Shown here piece after piece: positions 3,899-30,438 of a stretch of DNA of 42,950 bases; the stretch's first letter is position 1; each line of letters opens with the position of its first letter. This DNA is from a virus (lineage: Duplodnaviria; Heunggongvirae; Uroviricota; Caudoviricetes). Position numbers and translations under genes: made by a program. Below the pieces are notes generated by a model. The model did not search any database and was not told where the DNA came from. It saw nothing but the letters and a program-made list of their open reading frames with translations. The stretch lies in IMG/VR virus record IMGVR_UViG_2870479586_000005; one strand, 5' to 3'.

Positions 3899-4411
3899 TT
3901 AATATACATGGAGAATACGAGCAACGCCCGCAAGAACGTCAACACCATTAATTACTCGTTTCATTTTTGCAGGATGAATCTCGTAAATAACTTTTCCATT
4001 TTGAACTCGTTTATAATAGCTCGGCGCAATCGTTACTGATTGCCCAACTGCTGATTTTGAATCAGTCCCCTGCGCGTCATCAGTAATCGCCGTAATAAGC
4101 CCCTCATATGTATCAATACGTTCAAAATTGACACCGTAATTGTCAGTATATGCACTTCGAATTTCGAACCTTGTTTTAGCACCTGGTATTAATCCAAAAT
4201 ACCCCATCACACCAGAATCGGAGCCAGAGACTTTAAAACTGGCTGACATTTTCTCCATCCCCCCATCCAGAGTGATAGCTGTATCCATCGCGCCTGTTTT
4301 AAACTCGTCTTCGATTATTTTCATATCGACTGGAGTATATTCAGTACAATTTAAAACCCGTTCGCCCTGCACGAATAGCGCAAACGCGCGGTAAGCGTTG
4401 CTGTCTGACAT
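3899..4411 (-). CDS. contractile tail tube protein (P2 FII-like)
   Basis: 170-aa ORF directly downstream of the sheath gene; C-terminal INGVDVLAG recalls P2 FII. Confidence 0.7.
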   Translation of the reverse strand: MSDSNAYRAFALFVQGERVLNCTEYTPVDMKIIEDEFKTGAMDTAITLDGGMEKMSASFKVSGSDSGVMGYFGLIPGAKTRFEIRSAYTDNYGVNFERIDTYEGLITAITDDAQGTDSKSAVGQSVTIAPSYYKRVQNGKVIYEIHPAKMKRVINGVDVLAGVARILHVY

Positions 4412-4428
4412 ATTTAATCTCCGAATTA

Positions 4429-5930
4429 TCAGGCTGCTTCTTTAAAAAGGGAGGCCAGTGCTTCAACTGTATAGTCATTATTAATGCGGTACATTAACGT
4501 AATTGTTTGTGCCGGAGATTTCGGACCAAAATCAACATTAATATAAAGATTACCCGCAGCCAGGCTTTCTTTTGTATTCAGCTCACTGTCTAACCACGCA
4601 CGCCCTCCGTTAATCGCACCCTGCTCCTCTAATTTGTGCAGATATGCGTTTATCGACTCGACAACGTCTGTTCCGAGGTGCAGGTCTATCGGACGATCAA
4701 TAAAATCGGTCATCATTGCCCGGGCTATAGAATCCTCAATTACGTCAGCTGTTCGACGAACGCTCTCGAAAGACCATTGCGGGCTGAGGCTGCACAAATA
4801 GTTACCCCAGTGTCTGAACCCGTCATAGCGAATAATCGTGCTGACCTGGCTGGCATTCAGCAGGTTCGCTGTGCAGTTTGTCTCACCAATAATAAAATCG
4901 TCGACTTGTTCAAGCCCTGTAACTCCGTAGATATTCTGGTTCGATTTACTCCACCAGAATCCTTTTTCATTATCAATTCGGGCTCGTAAACCAGCAGCGA
5001 TAGCTGAATACGGACGAGATAACCCACTGACATCACTCGTAGAATAAACGCGAGGTCGCAACAACTCAGCGCGTCCGCCGAGTTTTTGCCTGCGATTCAC
5101 AACGTCTGCAGGGGTAGCAGCGCGCGGAGAGTCGATATAACACACTCCCCGGAGTTTATTTGCAACCACTTCAAGCTGAGCCGCTATTTCGTCTCGTGCG
5201 CTGTAATCCGGCGCTATAATAATTCGCGGGGTAACTTCGTTAATTTGCGCTGACGTCAAAAGCGAATTAATTCCGGCGATAACATTTTCGCTCATATCAG
5301 CGTCGTCGCTACTCTCTACAACGCGAACAACAACGATTAATGCATCAGTCTGATTTAAAATATCAGAAATAGCGGGGGGCAGAGTCCCGTATTTCCCGAG
5401 CAGGGCGGCTTTCTTCTGACTACCTGCAATTAATACAGGAGAATTAATCGGGAATGCGTCATCCGTTCCACCTGATAAATTTGTAGGTGGAAGACCAAAT
5501 ACTGTACCGGTTCCGGAATGCTCGCCACCAAAAGTTACATTAATCCACTCTCCGTCTGTTTTCCCCTCTCTATATTCCTGATTCTGATCATACATTTTGC
5601 CGGGGTCATTCCCGGCTCCGTAATCATCGTTAATTTTTTTGTTCCGTCGGGCAGCGTGCTATATCCTGGAGTGCAGGTTGCGCCCTCAACTGTCATATCT
5701 ACAATTTCAACAACCCATTTATTCCCGTCGCTGCCCGGTGATACAGTTGAAAACTCAACGAGATTATCAGCCAGCGATGAGCCCCACGTTAATGATGCTC
5801 TCGTAGCCTCCGCGACGTTCGTCGCAGTACCAACAATCCCAATCACGGAAATATCTACTGTGTTGATCTCTTTTGTGCCGTCGTCGTATTCGAGCGTGCG
5901 AATACCGTGCAAAAAATTAGTTACGCTCAT
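4429..5930 (-). CDS. contractile tail sheath protein (P2 FI-like), split across two frames at a T7/A7 run
   Basis: ORF 5535-5930 begins with a sheath-like N-terminus (MSVTNFLHGIRTLEYDDGTKEINTVDISVIGIVGTA); ORF 4429-5595 carries the rest (FPINSPVLIAG...IIRYDGFRHWGN...LYINVDF); frames join with one extra base in the run at 5634-5640. Confidence 0.75.
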
Positions 5931-19643: not shown

Positions 19644-19904
19644 ATGAGAACGCAAAAAATGAACAGAGAAAAAATTGAAGCCTTAATGAGCGTAATATTA
19701 AAAGAAGCTGACCCAAAAAAGTTTCCTGAGACGTTATCAGAGGACGCCATCGTATCTTTTTATCGTGCGAACTCCTCTTATCTAAATTGTTCAACTTTAA
19801 GAGAATGGCTAAGCGGCGAAGCAGAGCCTTCAGATGAGATACTTCAGAAGATTATGGTTCAGAACAACTGGCGCGCAACAAAATGGTCAAATCAGTTACC
19901 TTAA
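19644..19904 (+). CDS. hypothetical protein (possible moron, opposite strand to the late operon)
   Basis: 86-aa ORF in an AT-rich segment between the lysis cassette and the packaging genes; no strong RBS. Confidence 0.3.
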   Translation: MRTQKMNREKIEALMSVILKEADPKKFPETLSEDAIVSFYRANSSYLNCSTLREWLSGEAEPSDEILQKIMVQNNWRATKWSNQLP

Positions 19905-19963
19905 TCTGTTGAATGTGTGCCGCCTTAAAACAAAAAGGCGGCCTCTCGTTAAAGTAAATTACC

Positions 19964-20158
19964 CTATTTTCCACCAAGGCATGAAGCCTCTGCCCCGGTT
20001 GAATCAATACAACCACCGTTCGCAGTAGTAATCTTCGTACCCGGCGCGATCATCACGTGTTTAATACTGCTGCCGTCAGCGCGAGTCGCTTCGGTGTATG
20101 TCGAATGTGTGCAGCCTGCCATCGTGAAGAACGCGACAGCTAAGAGAAGTTTTTTCAC
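19964..20158 (-). CDS. small lipoprotein at the end of the lysis cassette (possible o-spanin-like or lysis accessory protein)
   Basis: 64-aa ORF with signal peptide and lipobox (LLAVAFFTMAGC); directly downstream of the endolysin gene. Confidence 0.55.
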   Translation of the reverse strand: MKKLLLAVAFFTMAGCTHSTYTEATRADGSSIKHVMIAPGTKITTANGGCIDSTGAEASCLGGK

Positions 20159-20165
20159 GTTTTAC

Positions 20166-20645
20166 CTACGCTTCTGAGATAGATTTCTCAGCATTCACCA
20201 ATGGAAGTGATTGTGGAACATCCGTTTGACCTGCTGGCCAGCGGTAGCCTGTTACGCGGGAACGAGGAAAAGCTTTGATATTCACTGCGTCTGCCTGGTT
20301 GCCACCCAAAATCATTAAATCCCCGGCGGCATTTTTCCCGACAACAAAGCCAACGTGACCACCGCCAGACCGAGACAGAATAGCAATGCATCCATAGGCG
20401 GGTTCCTTCAGTTCATTACCCCAATCGAGATAAGAATTCGCAGACTCAAAACGCGTTGAGCGAATACCCGCACGTTCCAGCATTGCCCCGGTGAAAGCAG
20501 CGCACCACGGTGTTTCGTCATCCTTAATGCCGCCGCGTTTGATATCTTTCCAGTACTGCACAATTTCCGCAGCATGTTGCTTCCCTTTCATTTCCCGAAT
20601 GCCGAGGTTTTTTCGAGCCTCAATTAGCCATTTAGGATCGGTCAT
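20166..20645 (-). CDS. putative endolysin (Cys peptidase-like, TIGR02594-type)
   Basis: 159-aa ORF after two membrane-protein genes; candidate catalytic Cys in WCAAF and His in GGGHVGFV. Confidence 0.55.
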   Translation of the reverse strand: MTDPKWLIEARKNLGIREMKGKQHAAEIVQYWKDIKRGGIKDDETPWCAAFTGAMLERAGIRSTRFESANSYLDWGNELKEPAYGCIAILSRSGGGHVGFVVGKNAAGDLMILGGNQADAVNIKAFPRSRVTGYRWPAGQTDVPQSLPLVNAEKSISEA

Positions 20646-20917
20646 GACCTGTCTCCTGTTATTTTTGAAATATTCCCTCGTGCCCGCCAGACAGCAATAC
20701 AGATGGTGAGGTTGAGAAAGAACTCTGCGGGATCAACCTGCGTATATTTCCCGTAAAAAATTCGTAGGGCTATCCACGCAGCAGACAGAATCGCGAGGTA
20801 AGCAGTTAGTGAGATGAAAAAACGATAGCGGCCTGTTTTTTGAAAAAACATCAACCGTAGTGCCAACATCAGACAAATAATTGCATTGGCATTGATGAGG
20901 ACAGAGTGCAGGGTCAT
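20642..20917 (-). CDS. holin-like / antiholin-like membrane protein
   Basis: 91-aa ORF with about three hydrophobic helices; coupled between holin and endolysin. Confidence 0.5.
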   Translation of the reverse strand: MTLHSVLINANAIICLMLALRLMFFQKTGRYRFFISLTAYLAILSAAWIALRIFYGKYTQVDPAEFFLNLTICIAVWRARGNISKITGDRS

Positions 20918-21255
20918 TATTTCATCCCCTTATCTGATTTCCATAAACGAGCTTGTGACATGATCCGCAACAGTGATGTAACGCTGATTACTGATGCAAC
21001 CAGTGCACCAATGGCGGGAGAGACTTTTACTGTTACGGGAGGGTTCAGGTGACTCAGCACCGCGTTCAGAATACCGGTAATGATGGCTGATGCTGTTTCA
21101 GCGCAATACACACCACCAACAAATGAAATGAGTGCGAAAATAACCTGCTTCCAGAATCGATGCTGCCCGGATGACAACACATAGAGAGCTGCGCCTGCCA
21201 GCGCACAGATCATCACTGCAGGTGTTGCCTCAGGAAATAACGCAGCAAACGTCAC
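20917..21255 (-). CDS. putative holin
   Basis: 112-aa ORF (GTG start in track, internal Met nearby) with multiple TM helices; first gene after the Q-like gene. Confidence 0.5.
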   Translation of the reverse strand: MTFAALFPEATPAVMICALAGAALYVLSSGQHRFWKQVIFALISFVGGVYCAETASAIITGILNAVLSHLNPPVTVKVSPAIGALVASVISVTSLLRIMSQARLWKSDKGMK

Positions 21256-21496
21256 CCCGCCGAGCCAGCAGCAACGCCAGCGGTTAGAGGTTCAGACATG
21301 ATTTTTCCTGATTCAGAAACGACAAAACCCGCCGTGGCGAGGTTCTTAGAGATTTGGCAACATACCAAATTAGCGTTAAATATGGCCTATTTTGTTCGGT
21401 TTTGCAAGCATTATACGCAAACGTCGTCTAAATGGTTCTGATAATGATGCAAAGTTGCAAGAAGTGCCACTTCATCAAGTGCTCTCACCGCCTCTT

Positions 21497-23375: not shown

Positions 23376-24017
23376 TTATTTATCACTCCTGTAAATTGAA
23401 ATTAACCATTTTCTAATCGTCGACGCTGCAGGTGGGTCAGAGTATTTCGCCACAAAAATACCGGATATGTATTGCACACCACGCGATAATGGCGCTGTCG
23501 GGTTTTCAGTAAAAAAACGATCAGCCAGTTCAATGGCTTCGCTTTTTAATCTGTGCTGTGGCCGTCCTCCGCCCTTAGTGCCAAGGTAACGCGCCAGTTG
23601 TTTGAAACGGTAGGCGATGATTAACGGTCGCATCATCATATTGAAAAAATCTCGGGCATCGTTGTCAGCGCCTTGCGCTATCAACAGTGCAAAAAACAGA
23701 TACGGGATTGTGTACACTTCAGGAGATATACGAACCCGTTCACAAGTTGGTGGAGCCAACTCAATAAGTAAGTCAGCCAGCGGATCCCCCTTTTCTCCAT
23801 GTTTGTAATAGCGATACAGAGGCCCGATATCGAGTTCACTCACGTCAATTTCAGGATGCCCGGCAACGGTTGTACGTATCTCTTCTGCCAGAGCGTCAAA
23901 TATTACCCCGGTCCGCTCAAGATAGAGCCTCCGGGTCGAACCGCGATCATCCAACGCCCGTAACATATCTAACCGGCTTACGAAAGTTTCAGGCCAGTCC
24001 TCATAGAAAGTTTTCAT
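23376..24017 (-). CDS. hypothetical protein (213 aa), accessory island
   Basis: Track ORF 23376-24053; internal ATG at 24017 has a GAGGT Shine-Dalgarno 5 nt upstream, so the upstream extension is probably not translated. Confidence 0.5.
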   Translation of the reverse strand: MKTFYEDWPETFVSRLDMLRALDDRGSTRRLYLERTGVIFDALAEEIRTTVAGHPEIDVSELDIGPLYRYYKHGEKGDPLADLLIELAPPTCERVRISPEVYTIPYLFFALLIAQGADNDARDFFNMMMRPLIIAYRFKQLARYLGTKGGGRPQHRLKSEAIELADRFFTENPTAPLSRGVQYISGIFVAKYSDPPAASTIRKWLISIYRSDK

Positions 24018-24088
24018 AATTACCTCGAATAATAAAAACTGCATTATTTGCACAATTTATTATTCGTTTTCACATCGCAGGGTTCTAT

Positions 24089-24115
24089 AAAAAAGAAAAC
24101 CCGCCGAAGCGGGTT
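24089..24115 (-). terminator. rho-independent terminator
   Basis: Hairpin AACCCGC-CGAA-GCGGGTT followed on the minus strand by TTTCTTTTT, 20 bp after the stop of the 92-aa gene. Confidence 0.55.
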
Positions 24116-24135
24116 AGTTAATAAGTTACACCAGG

Positions 24136-24414
24136 TTATGAGGCCATACCGTAAGCTTTTTTATGCATCCCATGGTCATAGCCCATATTATATGCTTCAA
24201 AAGCATCTTTATGACGGACATGCCCAGCCTGGCTTTCGGGTAAATCACCTAAAACAGAGTCATCAACCGCACGCGGAACGCCGATTAATGCATGCCACAT
24301 ACCTTTATCATAGGCACATCCACAACACTTGTGCCGCCCAACGTTACCCTGATTTGCAGAAAGAACATCAAACATACTGTCGTGACGATGTGACTTTTTA
24401 CAGATGTGTTTCAT
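24136..24414 (-). CDS. hypothetical Cys/His-rich small protein
   Basis: 92-aa ORF (CKKSHRHD...HKCCGCAYDKGMWH...) with its own downstream terminator; weak Shine-Dalgarno. Confidence 0.35.
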   Translation of the reverse strand: MKHICKKSHRHDSMFDVLSANQGNVGRHKCCGCAYDKGMWHALIGVPRAVDDSVLGDLPESQAGHVRHKDAFEAYNMGYDHGMHKKAYGMAS

Positions 24415-24882
24415 TCATTGACCTATATCATTTTCGGTAATGAATGCTTTACACGGGATCCCGGTTGAGGTAATCTCCCAAACCGAGATCTCAACGAAAG
24501 CATTAACCGATGTTTTTGTATGGCCCTGACAGTTGGCGCTGTCAGGGCTTTCCCTTTGATGCGACTCTAAAAACTTCGCAACCTCCAGATCCTATCCAGG
24601 ACCAAGAAAAACTTCAATGAAAAGATCAAGTTAGATCTGTATTTTTTTACAGATGTAATAAATCACACATGTAATAGCCTTCCCTTTCCGTTCTCATCTG
24701 GCCTCTTGTGGCATCCATTTTTTTAAGAAACATATGGACGCCTAAAAAACCACTAATGTCATGATTATCATGTATGTTTTTACTGGAAACATTGAGCCAT
24801 CCACAATGCAGCGTAAAAAGCAAGCAATTCACAAGATTTTAAAGTGATTTATCTGGAAGACTTTACTACTAACAGTTAATAT

Positions 24883-24927
24883 CGTACCAGAAGTGCAGAA
24901 TTTGCACTTTCACAGGAAAGTGGTACG
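24883..24927. promoter_or_regulatory. nested palindrome / candidate operator upstream of the peptidase gene
   Basis: CGTACCA (24883-24889) pairs with TGGTACG (24921-24927); AGTGCA (24892-24897) pairs with TGCACT (24903-24908); lies 55-100 bp upstream of the ATG at 24982. Confidence 0.4.
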
Positions 24928-24981
24928 GAACATGTTGTCTATATTTCGACCAACAATCGTAATGCAGTAACTGGAGGAGCT

Positions 24982-25470
24982 ATGGCTACCAACCCAAGAG
25001 AGCACGCCCGGCGAGTGCTGGACACGTTCTGGTGCGGGCGTGGTTTCCCTGTTGATCCAGCGAAAATTGCTCACGACATGGGATTAGATGTTTTTATTAC
25101 CGATCTTCCTGGGAAAGTTTCTGGCGCACTGATTAAACAAAAAGATCAAGATCCAGCGATCTTTCTAAACAGTGATGACAACAAAGTTCGTCAACGTTTT
25201 TCATGTGGGCATGAGTTGGGGCATTACATCGCCCGGCAAGCATCGCATAGTGATGAATATGAGTACGTTGATTTACGTGGCGAAACCGCAAGCGCCGGAA
25301 CGCATCCTGATGAAATTTTTGCGAACAAGTTCGCAGCAGAACTTCTGATGCCGGTTGATGAGGTCAGAAAACTGCACGCTGACGGCCAACCAAGTTATAT
25401 AATGGCGCATTATTTTGGCGTATCTGACGATGCGATGACTTATCGTTTAAAGAACTTGAGGTTGGGGTAA
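24982..25470 (+). CDS. ImmA/IrrE-family Zn metallopeptidase (HExxH)
   Basis: 162-aa ORF; HELGHY motif within a DUF955/ImmA-like context; GGAGGA Shine-Dalgarno upstream. Confidence 0.75.
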   Translation: MATNPREHARRVLDTFWCGRGFPVDPAKIAHDMGLDVFITDLPGKVSGALIKQKDQDPAIFLNSDDNKVRQRFSCGHELGHYIARQASHSDEYEYVDLRGETASAGTHPDEIFANKFAAELLMPVDEVRKLHADGQPSYIMAHYFGVSDDAMTYRLKNLRLG

Positions 25471-25479
25471 CGCTTTAGA

Positions 25480-26085
25480 ATGCCATCGGATGACGATTTT
25501 AACAGCCGTTTCAAACAGGAAGTTGCACGCCGACTGAAGGATTCCCTCAACCTACACCGTCAGTTAGCAGAAGAGGTTGAGCCGGAGGACGATGAAACTC
25601 CGGTTCAGTCCCCTGATGAAACTTCACCTCTGCAAAAGATTTCGCACGACCCCAAAAAACCATCTGTCCGTATTCACGGAATAGCCAGAAAAAGAGCTGC
25701 CGAAGCTCGCAAAATGGCTGTAGCTGCGTCTAGCAAAAGAACTCCAACTGCTACACCATCTCAACAAGTCACCCGTACTGAGAGTAAAATCTTGACCGAG
25801 TTCACATCTGTGAAACAGGTGAGTTCACTTGATACCGAGCATGAGCGCAAACAACTCAACAACAAAGATTTTGAAGCTGAAATCGCTCTAAAAAAACGCT
25901 ACGGAAAATGGTTCCTGATAATCCTTGCTTGCCAACTTCTGATAATGAATGGGGTATTTATTGCCGACGGCGCAGGTAAGCTGGAATTTGAGGATTTAAC
26001 ACTACAGTTGTACATGGGCGGTACTTTGACAGAGGTATTCGGCCTCGTGCTGGTCGTGACAAAATACCTTTTTAAACGCAAGTAA
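25480..26085 (+). CDS. membrane protein with charged N-terminal region and two C-terminal TM helices
   Basis: 201-aa ORF starting 10 bp after the peptidase stop; C-terminus WFLIILACQLLIMNGVFIA and GGTLTEVFGLVLVVTKYLF are hydrophobic helices. Confidence 0.65.
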   Translation: MPSDDDFNSRFKQEVARRLKDSLNLHRQLAEEVEPEDDETPVQSPDETSPLQKISHDPKKPSVRIHGIARKRAAEARKMAVAASSKRTPTATPSQQVTRTESKILTEFTSVKQVSSLDTEHERKQLNNKDFEAEIALKKRYGKWFLIILACQLLIMNGVFIADGAGKLEFEDLTLQLYMGGTLTEVFGLVLVVTKYLFKRK

Positions 26086-26509
26086 CTCTCTCGGTCCAAC
26101 AGTCTTTCGAAAGCCCTGATCAAAGGGCCTTGATAAATTAGCAGTGCGTTGAAAACAGATAGTTATTCCCATCAGTTCCAACGTAATACACATCAAAAAA
26201 ATCACCATTCTTTTGCTCTACGTCAACACCTACCCTTAAAAAAATAATTCTCCAAGAATGAGAAAGTTATTGTGTGTATTAGATAAGATATGAGCTGACA
26301 CATCTATGGCGTGGAGCCAAACCTAATATGACAGTCCGCTCTGTGCCAAGAGCGAACATTACAAACACACTAAAATTTATGTTTGTACTTCGCTGTAGCC
26401 ACCTAAAAGTATTATTGCGGGTGGTTTCGTGACAATGTTAGATATTCTTCATTTTGAATTGATTACTGAATTAAGATAAAACCACCCGAATTAAAACTAT
26501 CAAAAGTAT

Positions 26510-27391
26510 CTATGGTTGTTCATCACTCTCTTCTGAAAGTATTTGTACTACTTGTCCACACTCTCCACATACTACGTGTAATTGACTATCTTCTTCGGAC
26601 TTGAAAATCTCACTAACTAAGCTATGACAGTTAGGGCATTTTATCTCGTTATCAAAACCTATGAATTTAAGGAATAAGTTTTGAATTAATGAAACTGCAG
26701 TGCAAGTGAGTATAAGGCAAATTTTAGCGTCAGGAATGTTTTTGTTTGAAGAGTGCACCGTCTCTGCGGAAAAATCCCATGCAGACTCAATCGTTGAGCG
26801 GCAATATTTTCTGAGACTTGAGTTTCGTTTTCCTGCGGCATACAACCCAATAATAATTCGGCAAATATTTTTAAAGTCAGCTGCTTTAATATTTTCTTTT
26901 TTTAATATATCCTCATGAGTTTTATAAAGGTGAGCAGCAAGCTCAACCATGCTCTCTCTACAAGTTAGTCCAATACTTTGAATATCTTCAGGGGCCTTAA
27001 TATTATTCAGAGCAACAGCAGAAGCATTTAACCTCCGGCTAATAGAACGAAGCATATCTATATCTAAAGGTAACTCATCAATAACATGTTTGAAATCATT
27101 GCTATGTCTTGCTTGTAGTCTTTGAGTTATACCCAAATGAAAAGAATATGCTTCATCAGCAGAAAAGAAAAACTCATTTTGAGTGTATAAGTTTAAAGGA
27201 ACGTTTTCACCTTCAGCAACCCACCAGTTACCATCATTTTTTGTTCTGACGTTCCAAATGTTAACCTCAAAACCTAAATCATTAAATGTTTGCTCAACTT
27301 GCATGTTTTTTATGTTTTCTATATTTTGAGTTTTTAAATATTCAGTAATTCTTTTCTCAGCATCGATTCTGTATTCTGGTGTCATGTGCAA
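26510..27391 (-). CDS. hypothetical protein with C-terminal zinc ribbon
   Basis: 293-aa ORF in AT-rich DNA; C-terminal CPNC...CGEC four-Cys motif. Confidence 0.55.
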   Translation of the reverse strand: MHMTPEYRIDAEKRITEYLKTQNIENIKNMQVEQTFNDLGFEVNIWNVRTKNDGNWWVAEGENVPLNLYTQNEFFFSADEAYSFHLGITQRLQARHSNDFKHVIDELPLDIDMLRSISRRLNASAVALNNIKAPEDIQSIGLTCRESMVELAAHLYKTHEDILKKENIKAADFKNICRIIIGLYAAGKRNSSLRKYCRSTIESAWDFSAETVHSSNKNIPDAKICLILTCTAVSLIQNLFLKFIGFDNEIKCPNCHSLVSEIFKSEEDSQLHVVCGECGQVVQILSEESDEQP

Positions 27392-27449
27392 TCCCTTTTA
27401 ATAAGATACTAAAAGTAAAAGCGCATTATAGCATAACACATACAATGCG

Positions 27450-27695
27450 TTAATGCGTATGCTTGTGCCCTGTAATGATTTCAAAATGAACGTTTGCATA
27501 CAACTGTTTTTTGATCTGGTTGTATTGCAACAGAATGATTTCCACTGCTCGTTCATAGCTGATCTTCAGTTTAGTTAGCATGTCCGTTCTGTGCCTTTTA
27601 AGTTCATTCTTGCCATACTTAGCCGACTTGAATGCTATTTCTTCTATCACTTTTTTAGTTGGCATATTGGGGCTAGAGTTCCGTTCCTCGCTCAC
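27450..27695 (-). CDS. small hypothetical protein
   Basis: 81-aa ORF (GTG start in track) just upstream of the 293-aa gene; start uncertain. Confidence 0.3.
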   Translation of the reverse strand: MSEERNSSPNMPTKKVIEEIAFKSAKYGKNELKRHRTDMLTKLKISYERAVEIILLQYNQIKKQLYANVHFEIITGHKHTH

Positions 27696-27862
27696 GGCAG
27701 ACCTTAAGCTCAGTTAGTTCGTCTGCTCCGTGCCAGAGCGAACGTTGTAAACACAACATTGCTTTAGTCGACAGGGGCCAATAGGCTACTGCGTACCCTG
27801 TGCTAGAGTAAGTATCAAATAGGTATTATCCATGTATATGACTGCTCGATGATGCATCATAA

Positions 27863-28942
27863 TCACAAACGTTCATGATCAAGACTGTTTTCATCATTAT
27901 TTAAGTCATTAAGCATTTGAAGTGCGTCACGAGTACGTTCATAATTACTTTCAGGGTATAATCTAAACTTCATATTTTCCAAATTAATTAATTTTCTTTT
28001 TAATTTGAAGGAATCGTTAGAAAGTGACATTTCGTAAAAATCAATATCCCCCTGTCTGGATTGTAATGCACTCATAACGGAAAACTTAGCAGATTCTTTG
28101 AACCTCAAACCGAATGTAACATCGCTTAACCGAAATGGTGAGTTCTGTAAACCTTGATTATTAATAACTCGATATTCATTTTCATATTTCCAAGAAGGAG
28201 CTTTGCTGAGAAGAATGACCCTATCAATCTCTTTTTTGGCAGTATTCTTTATATTATCATTGCTGCCAAATAACATATCATGAACTTGTTGAGTTCTAAT
28301 AAATCGATTCCCTTTGTAATCAACTGGATGGATATCTAAAGAGTCATTTTCAGAAGTATCATATCCAATACAAAATCCCTTATGTTGATCAGCATAATGC
28401 GACCACATTAAGGGGCAGTTAAATTTTCTTGCTAATGAAAGAACACCAACCTCATAATTTTTTAGCAAGTATCTTTTAATATAAAAACTGGCGCTAGCAT
28501 AAAAATCATCACCATAATTATCAACATCCCACGAAATATTATCAATTAATTTTCGAGCTTCGCTTTCACCTAGCATTTCAATTTTCTCTAATGTCCTTAG
28601 ACCTTTATATTTAATTTTTTTTGCTGCTTTCGCTAGTTCCTTTTGATGATTTTCTTTTACTAATTTATGAAGGATAGAGTTCAATTCATTGACATTATTG
28701 ATGTCGTTTAACACGGAAGGATTACAATCCAAAGGGTCATTGAATGTTGTTGGATCAGCAAAATACAGTCTATCGCTTACAAGCAAGTCAAGACTATCAA
28801 CACTAAAGCTTTTATATTTATATAATCGAGAGGGAATATTCTGTATCATCACTTTTATCTCATAAATTTTTTTGATATTATCTGCCAATTCTAGCCCCAT
28901 GGGCAATAGCAAAATCGAAAAATACTCTCTACGTAAGGGCAA
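27863..28942 (-). CDS. DUF2971-like protein (candidate defence-associated)
   Basis: 359-aa ORF in AT-rich DNA; RLYKYKSF...LYFADPTTFNDPLDC...PLMWSHYADQHKGFCIGYD...KYENEYRV motifs recalled as DUF2971 hallmarks; start may be at an internal Met. Confidence 0.5.
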   Translation of the reverse strand: MPLRREYFSILLLPMGLELADNIKKIYEIKVMIQNIPSRLYKYKSFSVDSLDLLVSDRLYFADPTTFNDPLDCNPSVLNDINNVNELNSILHKLVKENHQKELAKAAKKIKYKGLRTLEKIEMLGESEARKLIDNISWDVDNYGDDFYASASFYIKRYLLKNYEVGVLSLARKFNCPLMWSHYADQHKGFCIGYDTSENDSLDIHPVDYKGNRFIRTQQVHDMLFGSNDNIKNTAKKEIDRVILLSKAPSWKYENEYRVINNQGLQNSPFRLSDVTFGLRFKESAKFSVMSALQSRQGDIDFYEMSLSNDSFKLKRKLINLENMKFRLYPESNYERTRDALQMLNDLNNDENSLDHERL

Positions 28943-29514
28943 GCCCTTTCCCCATGGATATTCATCAAATTAAGCGGGTGTACTTAGGTCATATTGACCT
29001 GTTCCTAATTGACGATACACCTCGATGTTCATTAAGCCACTTAGAGTGCTGAGACAGATATGAACTGCAGCTTTTCGCTCACTGCTGCCCTTCAGTAAGC
29101 GAAAAAATGCCTACTCGGTGCCATATACAGTCATGGTTATTAACTACAGGGAATAATTCCACACTGAAATTAAATGTCTGCCTTTTACAGTAGAAATAGT
29201 TTCTCCAGGACACTATCCATTGCCGGGCACAATCACTCGGGGTATAACGATATAAAATATGTTCATGATAGTGCAGGTTCGTATATTAAGTTCAGCAGCG
29301 AAAACATGCCTTACAGGTTTCCGGTTTTGGGAGCGTCGTTACAGGATCCTGCGCATACCGTTCCCATCTGTTGAATTAAAGGTTTCACAGCCTTTGCCGA
29401 TATCGCCTTTTACCTTGCCTGTGATGCGTTCAGTGCTCAGCGTTGTTTACTGTAGCTCTCGGAACTGATTACAGACCGCGTCTTAAAAACCAATCCTTAC
29501 TCTAAAGGGAATTC

Positions 29515-30438
29515 ATGAGATTAAAATACTCAGTACTCTTACTCGCCATTGCCCTTACAGGCTGTGATAACAAAAAAGATGAGATCGGTTGTTCTTCGGA
29601 AATGACCCAATCAGCTCTCATGGATTTATTAAAAAAATCTGCTTATGAAGGACTCTCTGAACAGGTCGATAAATACCCTGATGTCACTAATCAGACCAAA
29701 CGAAGCACACTGGACAAGATCAAACTAGCCGTCTCTGAAATCTCCACAACATCAAGTGACACGGGCAGCACAATGAAAACTTGTGAAGGGACCGTGACGA
29801 TGACTCTACCTGCGAACGAGTACGTCCAGCTTTCAGATGCTTACAGAAAGAATTTTAATCGTAATCTCGACAAGCAAATGGAAAGCCTGTTTTTGGAGAA
29901 CAACGCAAACGCCTTTTCCAAACGTATCACCTACACCGTGCAGGCGACCGACGATCAGAAAAACGTTTTTGTAAAAACCTCTTCTGATAATCCGATATCA
30001 GTGGGCGCCGCTTTACTGACATCACTTTCTATTATCAACCCGATCGTTGAGCAGCAGAAAATCCAGCAGGCTAAGGATGCCCAACAGAGCCAAATTGAAG
30101 CGGAACAACAGGTGCAACTCAGGGCGCAGGAACAGGCTAAGTATGAGGCGGAGAAGCAAATAGAGAGACAGGCACAACTTCAGCCACAAAAAGCTGACAG
30201 CCTTGATCAGTCCCGAATGGCATTTGCGAATGCCGACTCTGATTTGAGTACCGTCTGGAGCAAGTTAACCCCGGCGAAGAAAAAAGATTTGCTGCCTTCT
30301 CAGCGTCAGTGGATCAAAACTAAGGATGCTATGTGCGGTAAAGTTTCAATGCAGGGAACAGATGCTGAAGTCAAGAAAATGCTCGACTGCCAGACGCAAA
30401 TGACCCTTTCAAGAATCGCTTTCCTCAGAAACCAATAA
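29515..30438 (+). CDS. lipoprotein with C-terminal LprI/DUF1311-like domain
   Basis: 307-aa ORF; signal peptide plus lipobox (LLLAIALTGC); Gln-rich coiled region; C-terminal QRQWIKTKDAMCG...KMLDCQT...RIAFL resembles lysozyme-inhibitor LprI-type domains. Confidence 0.65.
   Translation: MRLKYSVLLLAIALTGCDNKKDEIGCSSEMTQSALMDLLKKSAYEGLSEQVDKYPDVTNQTKRSTLDKIKLAVSEISTTSSDTGSTMKTCEGTVTMTLPANEYVQLSDAYRKNFNRNLDKQMESLFLENNANAFSKRITYTVQATDDQKNVFVKTSSDNPISVGAALLTSLSIINPIVEQQKIQQAKDAQQSQIEAEQQVQLRAQEQAKYEAEKQIERQAQLQPQKADSLDQSRMAFANADSDLSTVWSKLTPAKKKDLLPSQRQWIKTKDAMCGKVSMQGTDAEVKKMLDCQTQMTLSRIAFLRNQ

Follow-up and report, generated by a model that had tools for sequence, protein, structure and literature searches.

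Here we describe a small lipoprotein gene at the end of the lysis cassette of an Escherichia coli prophage, IMG/VR record IMGVR_UViG_2870479586_000005, whose whole analysed stretch of 42,950 nucleotides is called the window below. The gene (19964..20158, minus strand; 64 amino acids, aa) starts with GTG 7 nt past the endolysin stop codon, has an AGGT motif 6 nt upstream, and belongs to a strongly conserved family whose members stand directly behind holins and endolysins in many unrelated cassettes. The original prediction, made from the sequence of the window, had tentatively tied the lipoprotein to lysis, and this wider comparison of gene order supports the link. Read from gene order, the lipoprotein is best explained as a third component of the cassette, in the slot that Rz/Rz1 fill in other phages. 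More precisely, we propose with a probability of roughly 45% that it is a non-spanning outer-membrane lysis factor acting on a conserved host component. We first set out the family and its genomic contexts, then the search for a spanin partner and the rival explanations, and finally the possible mechanism, the state of the operon in the window and the meaning of the finding.

The lipoprotein and its family

The prolipoprotein reads MKKLLLAVAFFTMAG up to the cleavage site in front of Cys16, with a signal peptide of residues 1-15 (MKK followed by a hydrophobic stretch) and a MAGC lipobox at residues 13-16. Cys16 is the predicted acylation site, and the other cysteines are Cys50 and Cys60. Both the translation and a lipobox scan thus agree with the original prediction of a lone 64-aa lipoprotein with this lipobox and three cysteines. 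The mature peptide (20113..19967) is CTHSTYTEATRADGSSIKHVMIAPGTKITTANGGCIDSTGAEASCLGGK; it contains four Lys/Arg and four Asp/Glu residues and a single proline, is roughly neutral, and is rich in Thr, Gly and Ala. Past residue 16 there is no hydrophobic segment, and the C-terminus is polar (…GAEASCLGGK). The residue at position +2 is Thr17 in the window and Thr, Ser, Ala or Met in all aligned homologues, never Asp, and Thr17 is therefore predicted to be a Lol-sorting residue that would direct the protein to the outer membrane.

No family in Pfam, NCBIfam or PHROG matches the window lipoprotein at E≤0.01. A search of 5.8 billion proteins recovered 70 clusters, which a profile search extended to 147 clusters at 90% identity, with mature peptides of 47-51 aa. 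All 147 clusters are from Enterobacteriaceae, the genera named being Escherichia, Salmonella, Citrobacter, Enterobacter, Leclercia, Lelliottia and Pseudescherichia, to which locus scans add Superficieibacter and a divergent Cronobacter homologue. A filter-free profile search of 1.84 billion representatives returned 18 matches, about 10 of them genuine small lipoproteins; the remainder are long repeat proteins with unrelated folds, pointing to a compositional effect. Annotations of family members read ‘hypothetical protein’ or ‘lipoprotein’ throughout, and in NZ_CP172134 (L003, 20605..20867) the conserved gene was left uncalled by the Prokaryotic Genome Annotation Pipeline (PGAP), so that family counts based on annotation are underestimates.

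The lipoprotein gene is a real gene with strong purifying selection on its mature peptide: the ratio of nonsynonymous to synonymous divergence (dN/dS), computed for 38 core codons of 13 genes, has a median of 0.057, with a mean dS of 1.56, which is saturated. The mature consensus CTHTTYTEATRADGSTVKHVAIAPGTKITTAxGGCIDSTGAxxxCP is almost invariant, whereas signal peptides vary freely. For pairs of the same loci, mature peptides share 73-92% identity, compared with 65-90% for the neighbouring endolysins. Cys50 and Cys60 are kept in at least 90% of close homologues, and their spacing is 8-10 residues in distant members.

Linkage to lysis genes in unrelated phages

Genomic contexts of the family were gathered from assemblies, IMG/VR and GTDB genomes, and their open reading frames (ORFs) were re-called. 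In 15 of 17 distinct contexts the intact gene follows directly after a holin or endolysin gene, with a Shine-Dalgarno-like motif ahead of its start codon. The gap to the upstream gene is usually 2-12 nt, with extremes of up to about 130 nt or one inserted gene. The phage backbones concerned are lambdoid, BPP-1-like podoviral or of other kinds, their tail modules are siphoviral, myoviral or podoviral, and the gene itself stands behind Q, in between scaffold and capsid genes, or downstream of a tailspike gene or of tail genes. Its partners are equally varied, comprising four endolysin types (TIGR02594/CHAP, Peptidase_M15_4, Peptidase_M15_3 and GH24 lysozyme) and at least three holin families (phrog_198 with phrog_217, the lambda-S-like phrog_126, and the LydA-like phrog_785/6384).

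Behind a TIGR02594/CHAP endolysin, the gene occurs together with two holins in E. coli and E. whittamii, as in the window, and also in Salmonella (L012, L013, L014), further E. coli loci (L031, L045, L046), L035 and Enterobacter (L047). The divergent homologue of Cronobacter turicensis (L049, 2991..3152), a Cys-less lipoprotein of 53 aa, likewise stands 7 nt behind a CHAP endolysin in a cassette with a LydA-like holin, and it aligns with the family over the pattern DG..V..V…G…LDATG. Peptidase_M15_4 endolysins precede the gene in a Citrobacter prophage remnant (L004-6) and in Superficieibacter electus (L033/L039). Peptidase_M15_3 endolysins do so in a BPP-1-like podoviral Salmonella prophage (L007-11), where the trio of holin, endolysin and lipoprotein is placed between scaffold and capsid genes. 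BPP-1 itself was considered as a comparator for L007 and set aside, since its lysis genes differ in arrangement and occupy the left genome end. GH24 lysozymes are separated from the lipoprotein by one inserted gene, which is KilA-N-like in L034 and of another kind in L032, while in L017, L018 and L036 the gene lies directly behind the holin with no endolysin between. L035 also carries a second, unrelated lipoprotein of 82 aa (4199..4447; MKKTLLAALFLSLTAC|TDPDSARK…) that starts 4 nt past the family lipoprotein and has no Pfam match.

By its conserved operon position with holin and endolysin genes across unrelated phages, the lipoprotein is a lysis-cassette gene in the operational sense. Because these partners change from cassette to cassette, it appears to be an exchangeable lysis module, one that cannot depend on a single phage-encoded partner.

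The search for a spanin partner

The original prediction saw no ORF resembling an inner-membrane spanin subunit (i-spanin) in the cassette. We scanned the whole window in six frames from all ATG, GTG and TTG starts, looking for lipobox signals or for a single N-terminal transmembrane (TM) helix with 60-260 residues behind it, and ran the TM scan again, less stringently, on 71 non-overlapping long ORFs. Neither the cassette nor the 42.9-kb window holds an i-spanin-like ORF or type II membrane protein with a periplasmic domain, nor an Rz/Rz1 pair in embedded, overlapping or separated arrangement. The particular case of an i-spanin embedded in or overlapping the cassette genes was checked and none was found; moreover, the saturation of synonymous sites (mean dS as given above) excludes a conserved ORF embedded in the lipoprotein gene. 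The same holds beyond the window, as neither an i-spanin nor a second outer-membrane subunit (o-spanin) resembling Rz1 was found beside the lipoprotein gene in 19 loci scanned or in the Cronobacter cassette. By contrast, Aeromonas phage PhAER-5, which has the closest phage homologue of the endolysin outside the prophage lineage (65% identity), continues after the endolysin with a canonical embedded Rz/Rz1 pair, namely a 183-aa i-spanin with an N-terminal TM domain and a proline-rich lipoprotein embedded in its +1 frame, and in Pseudomonas phage Kopi this slot holds a gene annotated as Rz.

The protein could still be a true o-spanin if its partner were distant or had an unrecognised form, such as a holin-like protein with several TM helices, a lipoprotein of the inner membrane or a protein of the host. 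Its size, lipobox, cassette position and two periplasmic cysteines near the C-terminus are o-spanin-like, and it shares with lambda Rz1 and other o-spanins a mature length of 40-60 aa, an outer-membrane sorting signal, periplasmic Cys and a place directly after the endolysin. The features by which the lipoprotein of a two-component spanin is recognised (a lipobox, an acylated Cys and no Asp at +2) are all present. Kongari et al. explicitly allow for non-canonical i-spanins, and T4 PseT.2 is described with two essential cysteines 11 residues apart in a beta-rich domain that is not proline-rich, to which the Cys pair of the lipoprotein can be likened (PMC6139136). When 17 members were compared singly with PHROGs, five gave weak ‘Rz-like spanin’ matches (best E 0.001), although these lie mainly over the signal peptide, and the spanin models in Pfam, NCBIfam and PHROGs have no significant match to the lipoprotein.

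The only other lipoprotein in the window might be cast as the missing partner. This 307-aa protein (29515..30438, plus strand) carries Asp at +2, which signals retention in the inner membrane; its central stretch is Gln-rich, and its C-terminal domain is of the LprI (PF07007) lysozyme-inhibitor-like type. This candidate was rejected, as LprI is its sole Pfam domain and the variable low-GC island in which it lies is absent from relatives with the same cassette. The protein could shield the murein of the lysogen from lysozymes.

Other observations also speak against an o-spanin. No partner candidate is common to the contexts: the holin families differ, the second holin exists in the E. coli lineage only, and the podoviral L007 has nothing but holin, endolysin and lipoprotein between its scaffold and capsid genes. 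Spanin subunits co-evolve and diverge fast, whereas the lipoprotein is nearly invariant across cassettes; it further differs from Rz1 in being partnerless, in having one proline against ten, and in its predicted beta-stranded structure. With the defining i-spanin missing from the window and 19 related loci, identity with a two-component spanin was rejected, and we consider an o-spanin with a hidden partner very improbable.

A unimolecular spanin fares no better as an identification. T1 gp11 is likewise encoded by a single gene after the endolysin and has an N-terminal lipobox and a predicted beta-rich periplasmic part. Proteins of the gp11 type, however, measure about 110-140 aa and end in an inner-membrane TM helix, whereas the window lipoprotein has 64 aa, ends in the polar …CLGGK and lacks any C-terminal TM domain. 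Even when fully extended, a mature chain of 48 residues would measure no more than about 17 nm, which is shorter than the periplasm is wide, and so cannot bridge both membranes. The ‘atypical spanin’ of the original prediction therefore fails if taken literally, the mature peptides of 47-51 aa having neither a C-terminal TM domain nor a partner.

Nor does the lipoprotein resemble the one non-spanin solution that we found in the literature on alternative outer-membrane disruptors, the phiKT disruptin. The phiKT protein, gp28, has an amphipathic helix and is not known to be a lipoprotein. As an answer to the outer-membrane step in a spanin-less phage the two would be alike. The disruptin is described as a cationic antimicrobial peptide (bioRxiv 10.1101/515445), whereas the mature lipoprotein balances four basic and four acidic residues, has four short predicted beta strands and follows a lipobox, for which reasons identity with a disruptin was rejected.

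A possible passenger gene at a permissive site

The chief rival explanation is that the gene is a moron, a lipoprotein unrelated to lysis that serves superinfection exclusion, receptor masking or lysogenic conversion and merely uses the permissive end of the operon. Morons are classically found at the end of lambdoid lysis operons; lambda bor, for example, sits just beyond the lambda lysis genes. Lambda Bor, phi80/N15 Cor and T5 Llp are also small phage-encoded outer-membrane lipoproteins, and Llp has a disulfide.

Several findings weigh against a lysis factor, many of them suiting a moron. The lysis role itself we infer from gene linkage and order only. Klebsiella pneumoniae cassettes (L042-44) with the same S-like holin and a 72%-identical endolysin have neither the lipoprotein nor a spanin nearby, their endolysin being followed by a hairpin and an opposite-strand DUF2971 gene. 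The lipoprotein is thus not obligatory for such cassettes. Two intact copies lack adjacent lysis genes, one behind an SU10-type capsid gene in a head-gene module (L037) and one standing alone between an MFS transporter gene and frmR in the chromosome of a Superficieibacter sp. (L040). The latter copy lies upstream of frmR/frmA, close to the neighbourhood bordering a widespread Citrobacter freundii prophage remnant (L004-L006) that keeps an intact holin, M15_4 endolysin and lipoprotein, this lipoprotein occurring in 306 collection blocks; the survival of the gene in the remnant and in L040 hints at retention for a host-side benefit. In a Salmonella prophage (L014), two diverged copies (4001..4198 and 4813..5004) flank an Acb2/Tad1-like anti-CBASS gene, a setting typical of morons, with an IS605-family TnpB gene immediately downstream.

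The protein itself offers further points of this kind. The mature peptide is polar, about neutral and without a membrane-active segment, and its conservation would also fit binding to a conserved surface or envelope protein of the host. The Cronobacter homologue lacks both periplasmic cysteines, so that a disulfide loop is not universal in the family. Among 50,697 deposited phage genomes the gene occurs in only one, and the predicted fold described below does not let a mechanism be read from it. In addition, 4 of the 17 members weakly match the Cor PHROG (best E 0.004).

These Cor matches are as weak as the spanin matches mentioned above, however, and both lie mainly over the signal peptide. 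Bor, Cor and Llp genes are expressed early or from promoters of their own, and those of Cor and Llp adjoin receptor-binding or tail genes; the family gene, in contrast, is operonic with the endolysin, 2-12 nt behind its stop codon, follows lysis genes across tail types and shows no significant similarity to these lipoproteins. No sigma-70-like promoter was found within 500 bp upstream of the lipoprotein gene. A receptor-specific exclusion protein should track the tail fibre gene, whereas this gene travels with holin and endolysin. A moron should moreover be indifferent to Rz/Rz1, yet the two did not co-occur in the loci scanned. Taking both sides together, we regard a moron unrelated to lysis as unlikely, and equally so its corollary that such phages manage without a dedicated outer-membrane step.

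Alternatively, the lipoprotein may belong to lysis as an accessory or, as the original prediction had also suggested, a regulator that tunes timing or loosens envelope tethers (Lpp, Pal, OmpA) instead of disrupting the membrane. Such a role shares the same linkage to lysis genes. A helpful but non-essential function would suit the dispensability seen in Klebsiella and the state of a Leclercia cassette (L050), in which the lipoprotein is a frameshifted, truncated pseudogene; holin and endolysin of the Klebsiella and Leclercia loci are alike in being the same S-like holin and a 71-72%-identical endolysin, and no spanin was visible within 2.5 kb in either the Klebsiella loci L042-L044 or L050. 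Known timing regulators (antiholins, T4 RI, Mu releasin), on the other hand, target the endolysin or work at the inner membrane, and an outer-membrane lipoprotein that accompanies four endolysin types and three holin families is not expected to be a specific regulator. We therefore rate this explanation as improbable.

Predicted fold and remote similarity

An AlphaFold2 model built from the family alignment has four short strands and a mean confidence (predicted local distance difference test, pLDDT) of 59, and a Foldseek search of the PDB with it returned nothing with E<1. A weak NCBIfam match to the host lipoproteins YgdI/YgdR (DUF903) was driven by the signal peptide: hhalign gave a probability of 95% with signal peptides included and 0.27% for the mature parts alone, and this homology was rejected because the match vanished once signal peptides were removed. 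PADLOC defence models had no match to the lipoprotein, the holins or the ORF convergent with the operon.

The family profile also weakly matches 42-residue single blades of the designed NHL ‘Pizza’ propellers (…PNGVAVDSAGT… against …ANGGCIDSTGA…). The low E-values of these matches are sums over identical blades at about 10 bits each, and matches in one stretch have E-values of 0.004-0.03. A single blade scores 16.7 bits compared with a maximum of 12.3 in 20,000 shuffles, which alone is not significant database-wide. Pfam NHL did not match the lipoprotein, and a six-fold concatenate of the lipoprotein did not fold in AlphaFold2 (pLDDT 41). A single NHL-like blade assembling into a hexameric propeller is a lead, though an unproven one.

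A possible mechanism of outer-membrane disruption

For a lipoprotein acting as an outer-membrane lysis factor, the following course of events may be envisaged. The gene would be transcribed together with both holin genes and the endolysin gene from a Q-dependent late promoter, as suggested by its distance of 7 nt from the endolysin gene, by the absence of a separate promoter and by a tR'-like hairpin upstream of the first holin gene. The precursor would then be exported and lipidated at Cys16, and the Lol system would sort it to the inner leaflet of the outer membrane, since the +2 residue is never Asp. Cys50 and Cys60 probably form a small disulfide loop, judging from their conservation. At the onset of lysis, holin would free the soluble CHAP endolysin and murein would be degraded, as is known for these protein families. 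With the murein gone, the lipoprotein might weaken the outer membrane without any bridge to the inner membrane.

The target in this last step would most likely be a conserved component of the host envelope. Such a component is a likelier target than a phage protein because the phage partners change while the sequence of the lipoprotein barely does, and because the family is confined to one bacterial family; the narrow host range in Enterobacteriaceae fits a host-specific target. Tentatively, the family may even constitute a third class of phage outer-membrane disruption proteins beside spanins and disruptins, lipid-anchored, about 48 residues long and engaging a host component, although we hold this to be possible rather than probable. 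Members of such a class might act as homo-oligomers, an idea prompted by a mature peptide of about the length of one beta-propeller blade and by the weak resemblance to such blades.

The lysis operon of the window

Apart from the lipoprotein, the operon consists of three minus-strand genes, and their reading as a lysis cassette in the original prediction stands. The two consecutive multi-TM proteins are holins. Holin-1 (20917..21299; three to four TM helices) matches Pfam Phage_holin_8 (1.6e-8) and the phrog_198 holin (3e-29), and holin-2 (20642..20917; 91 aa, three TM helices) matches Phage_holin_3_7 (9.6e-19) and the phrog_217 holin; the latter may be a second holin or an antiholin. The protein taken for a Cys-peptidase-like endolysin (20166..20645; 159 aa) matches NCBIfam TIGR02594 (1.3e-40) and, just above the cut-off, the Pfam CHAP domain (1.2e-5). 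It has no N-terminal TM, signal or signal-anchor-release (SAR) segment, which makes it an endolysin of the soluble type. The start of holin-2 overlaps the stop of holin-1, and its own stop overlaps the start of the endolysin.

All four ORFs were placed correctly on the minus strand, except that the start of holin-1 at 21255 turned out to be an artefact of a 1-nt deletion. In three close relatives holin-1 has 127 aa and an ATG start matching window position 21299. In the window, the gene is frameshifted past codon 15, with four G (21258..21255) where these relatives have five, leaving a 112-aa ORF (21255..20917) with a GTG start at 21255.

Upstream of holin-1, a TATAAT hexamer (21415..21410) overlaps the end of Q, and a tR'-like hairpin (21328..21341, minus strand) followed by TTTTGTCGTTT lies between hexamer and holin-1. 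From lambdoid gene order, this hairpin region is presumed to be the start of the Q-antiterminated late operon. Its G-run has three G (21330..21328) in the window and four in three aligned relatives, and Q lacks a lone T at about 21513/21514, which replaces its last 35 residues with five out-of-frame codons. Thus three single-base deletions, two of them in G-runs, affect Q, the hairpin and holin-1 within about 260 bp and leave the lipoprotein gene untouched. They may be sequencing errors, or they may reflect decay or inactivation of late gene expression, and with Q and holin-1 frameshifted the copy of the operon in the window may be inactive. L001 and L019, two relatives, likewise have a Q gene that is split or a pseudogene.

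Downstream, about 20 nt past the lipoprotein stop, a GC-rich hairpin of 8 bp (GCCGCCUU...AAGGCGGC; 19919..19942, minus strand; -18 kcal/mol, z = -3.7) separates the lysis operon from a convergent ORF and is followed by a U-tract on neither strand. The convergent ORF (19644..19904, plus strand; 86 aa) is annotated in relatives and matches phrog_5191, whose function is unassigned, over its full length (6.6e-61).

The prophage and its relatives

The window belongs to an E. coli prophage that combines lambda-like early genes, Q, terminase and head genes with a P2-like contractile tail. Annotated relatives show the order Q, ‘putative holin’, ‘phage holin family protein’, ‘TIGR02594 family protein’, a 64-aa hypothetical protein, the convergent small ORF and terminase. 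The deposited phage vB_EcoM-705R4 is 98.6% identical to the region of the window, and the 2.2-kb lysis region has near-identical copies in 447 of 5,426 complete E. coli genomes (about 8%), all of them chromosomal. We found no specific paper on the lipoprotein family or on vB_EcoM-705R4, the latter receiving only passing mention, and for spanin-less lysis nothing specific besides Kongari et al. (2018) and the disruptin preprint; papers on LambdaSo and T10SS proved irrelevant. An accessory region at about 24000..29000 of the window stands out by a GC content of 0.33-0.40 against a background of 0.45-0.55 and is unlike that of the relative GF131; the proteins encoded in this low-GC segment are a Peptidase_M78 protein of the ImmA/IrrE type, one with DUF2971 and one with a zinc-ribbon-like motif.

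Implications for spanin-less lysis

According to Kongari et al. (2018), 91 of 677 phage genomes, or 13% of the phages of Gram-negative hosts, lack a recognisable spanin, and 31 of these spanin-less genomes have a lipoprotein gene without a linked i-spanin, the mechanism being left open (PMC6139136). These cases present the same situation as the family described here and were listed but not analysed as families. The lipoprotein considered here, in comparison, defines a family that is conserved, consistently occupies the spanin slot and has genetically tractable hosts. The family is thus a well-defined new instance of a recognised open problem, and it would become a new category only if complementation were positive. 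Kongari et al. (PMC6139136) describe a complementation platform based on lambda RzamRz1am that can give a yes or no answer on the role of the lipoprotein.

With about one in eight phages of Gram-negative hosts lacking a recognisable spanin, the family provides a concrete candidate for the outer-membrane step in E. coli and Salmonella. Because its gene is unnamed everywhere and sometimes missed by PGAP, the lysis cassettes of a prophage present in about 8% of complete E. coli genomes are incompletely annotated. If the lipoprotein does act on a conserved target in the host envelope, it would reveal a weak point in the outer membrane of enterobacteria that can be reached from the periplasmic side.

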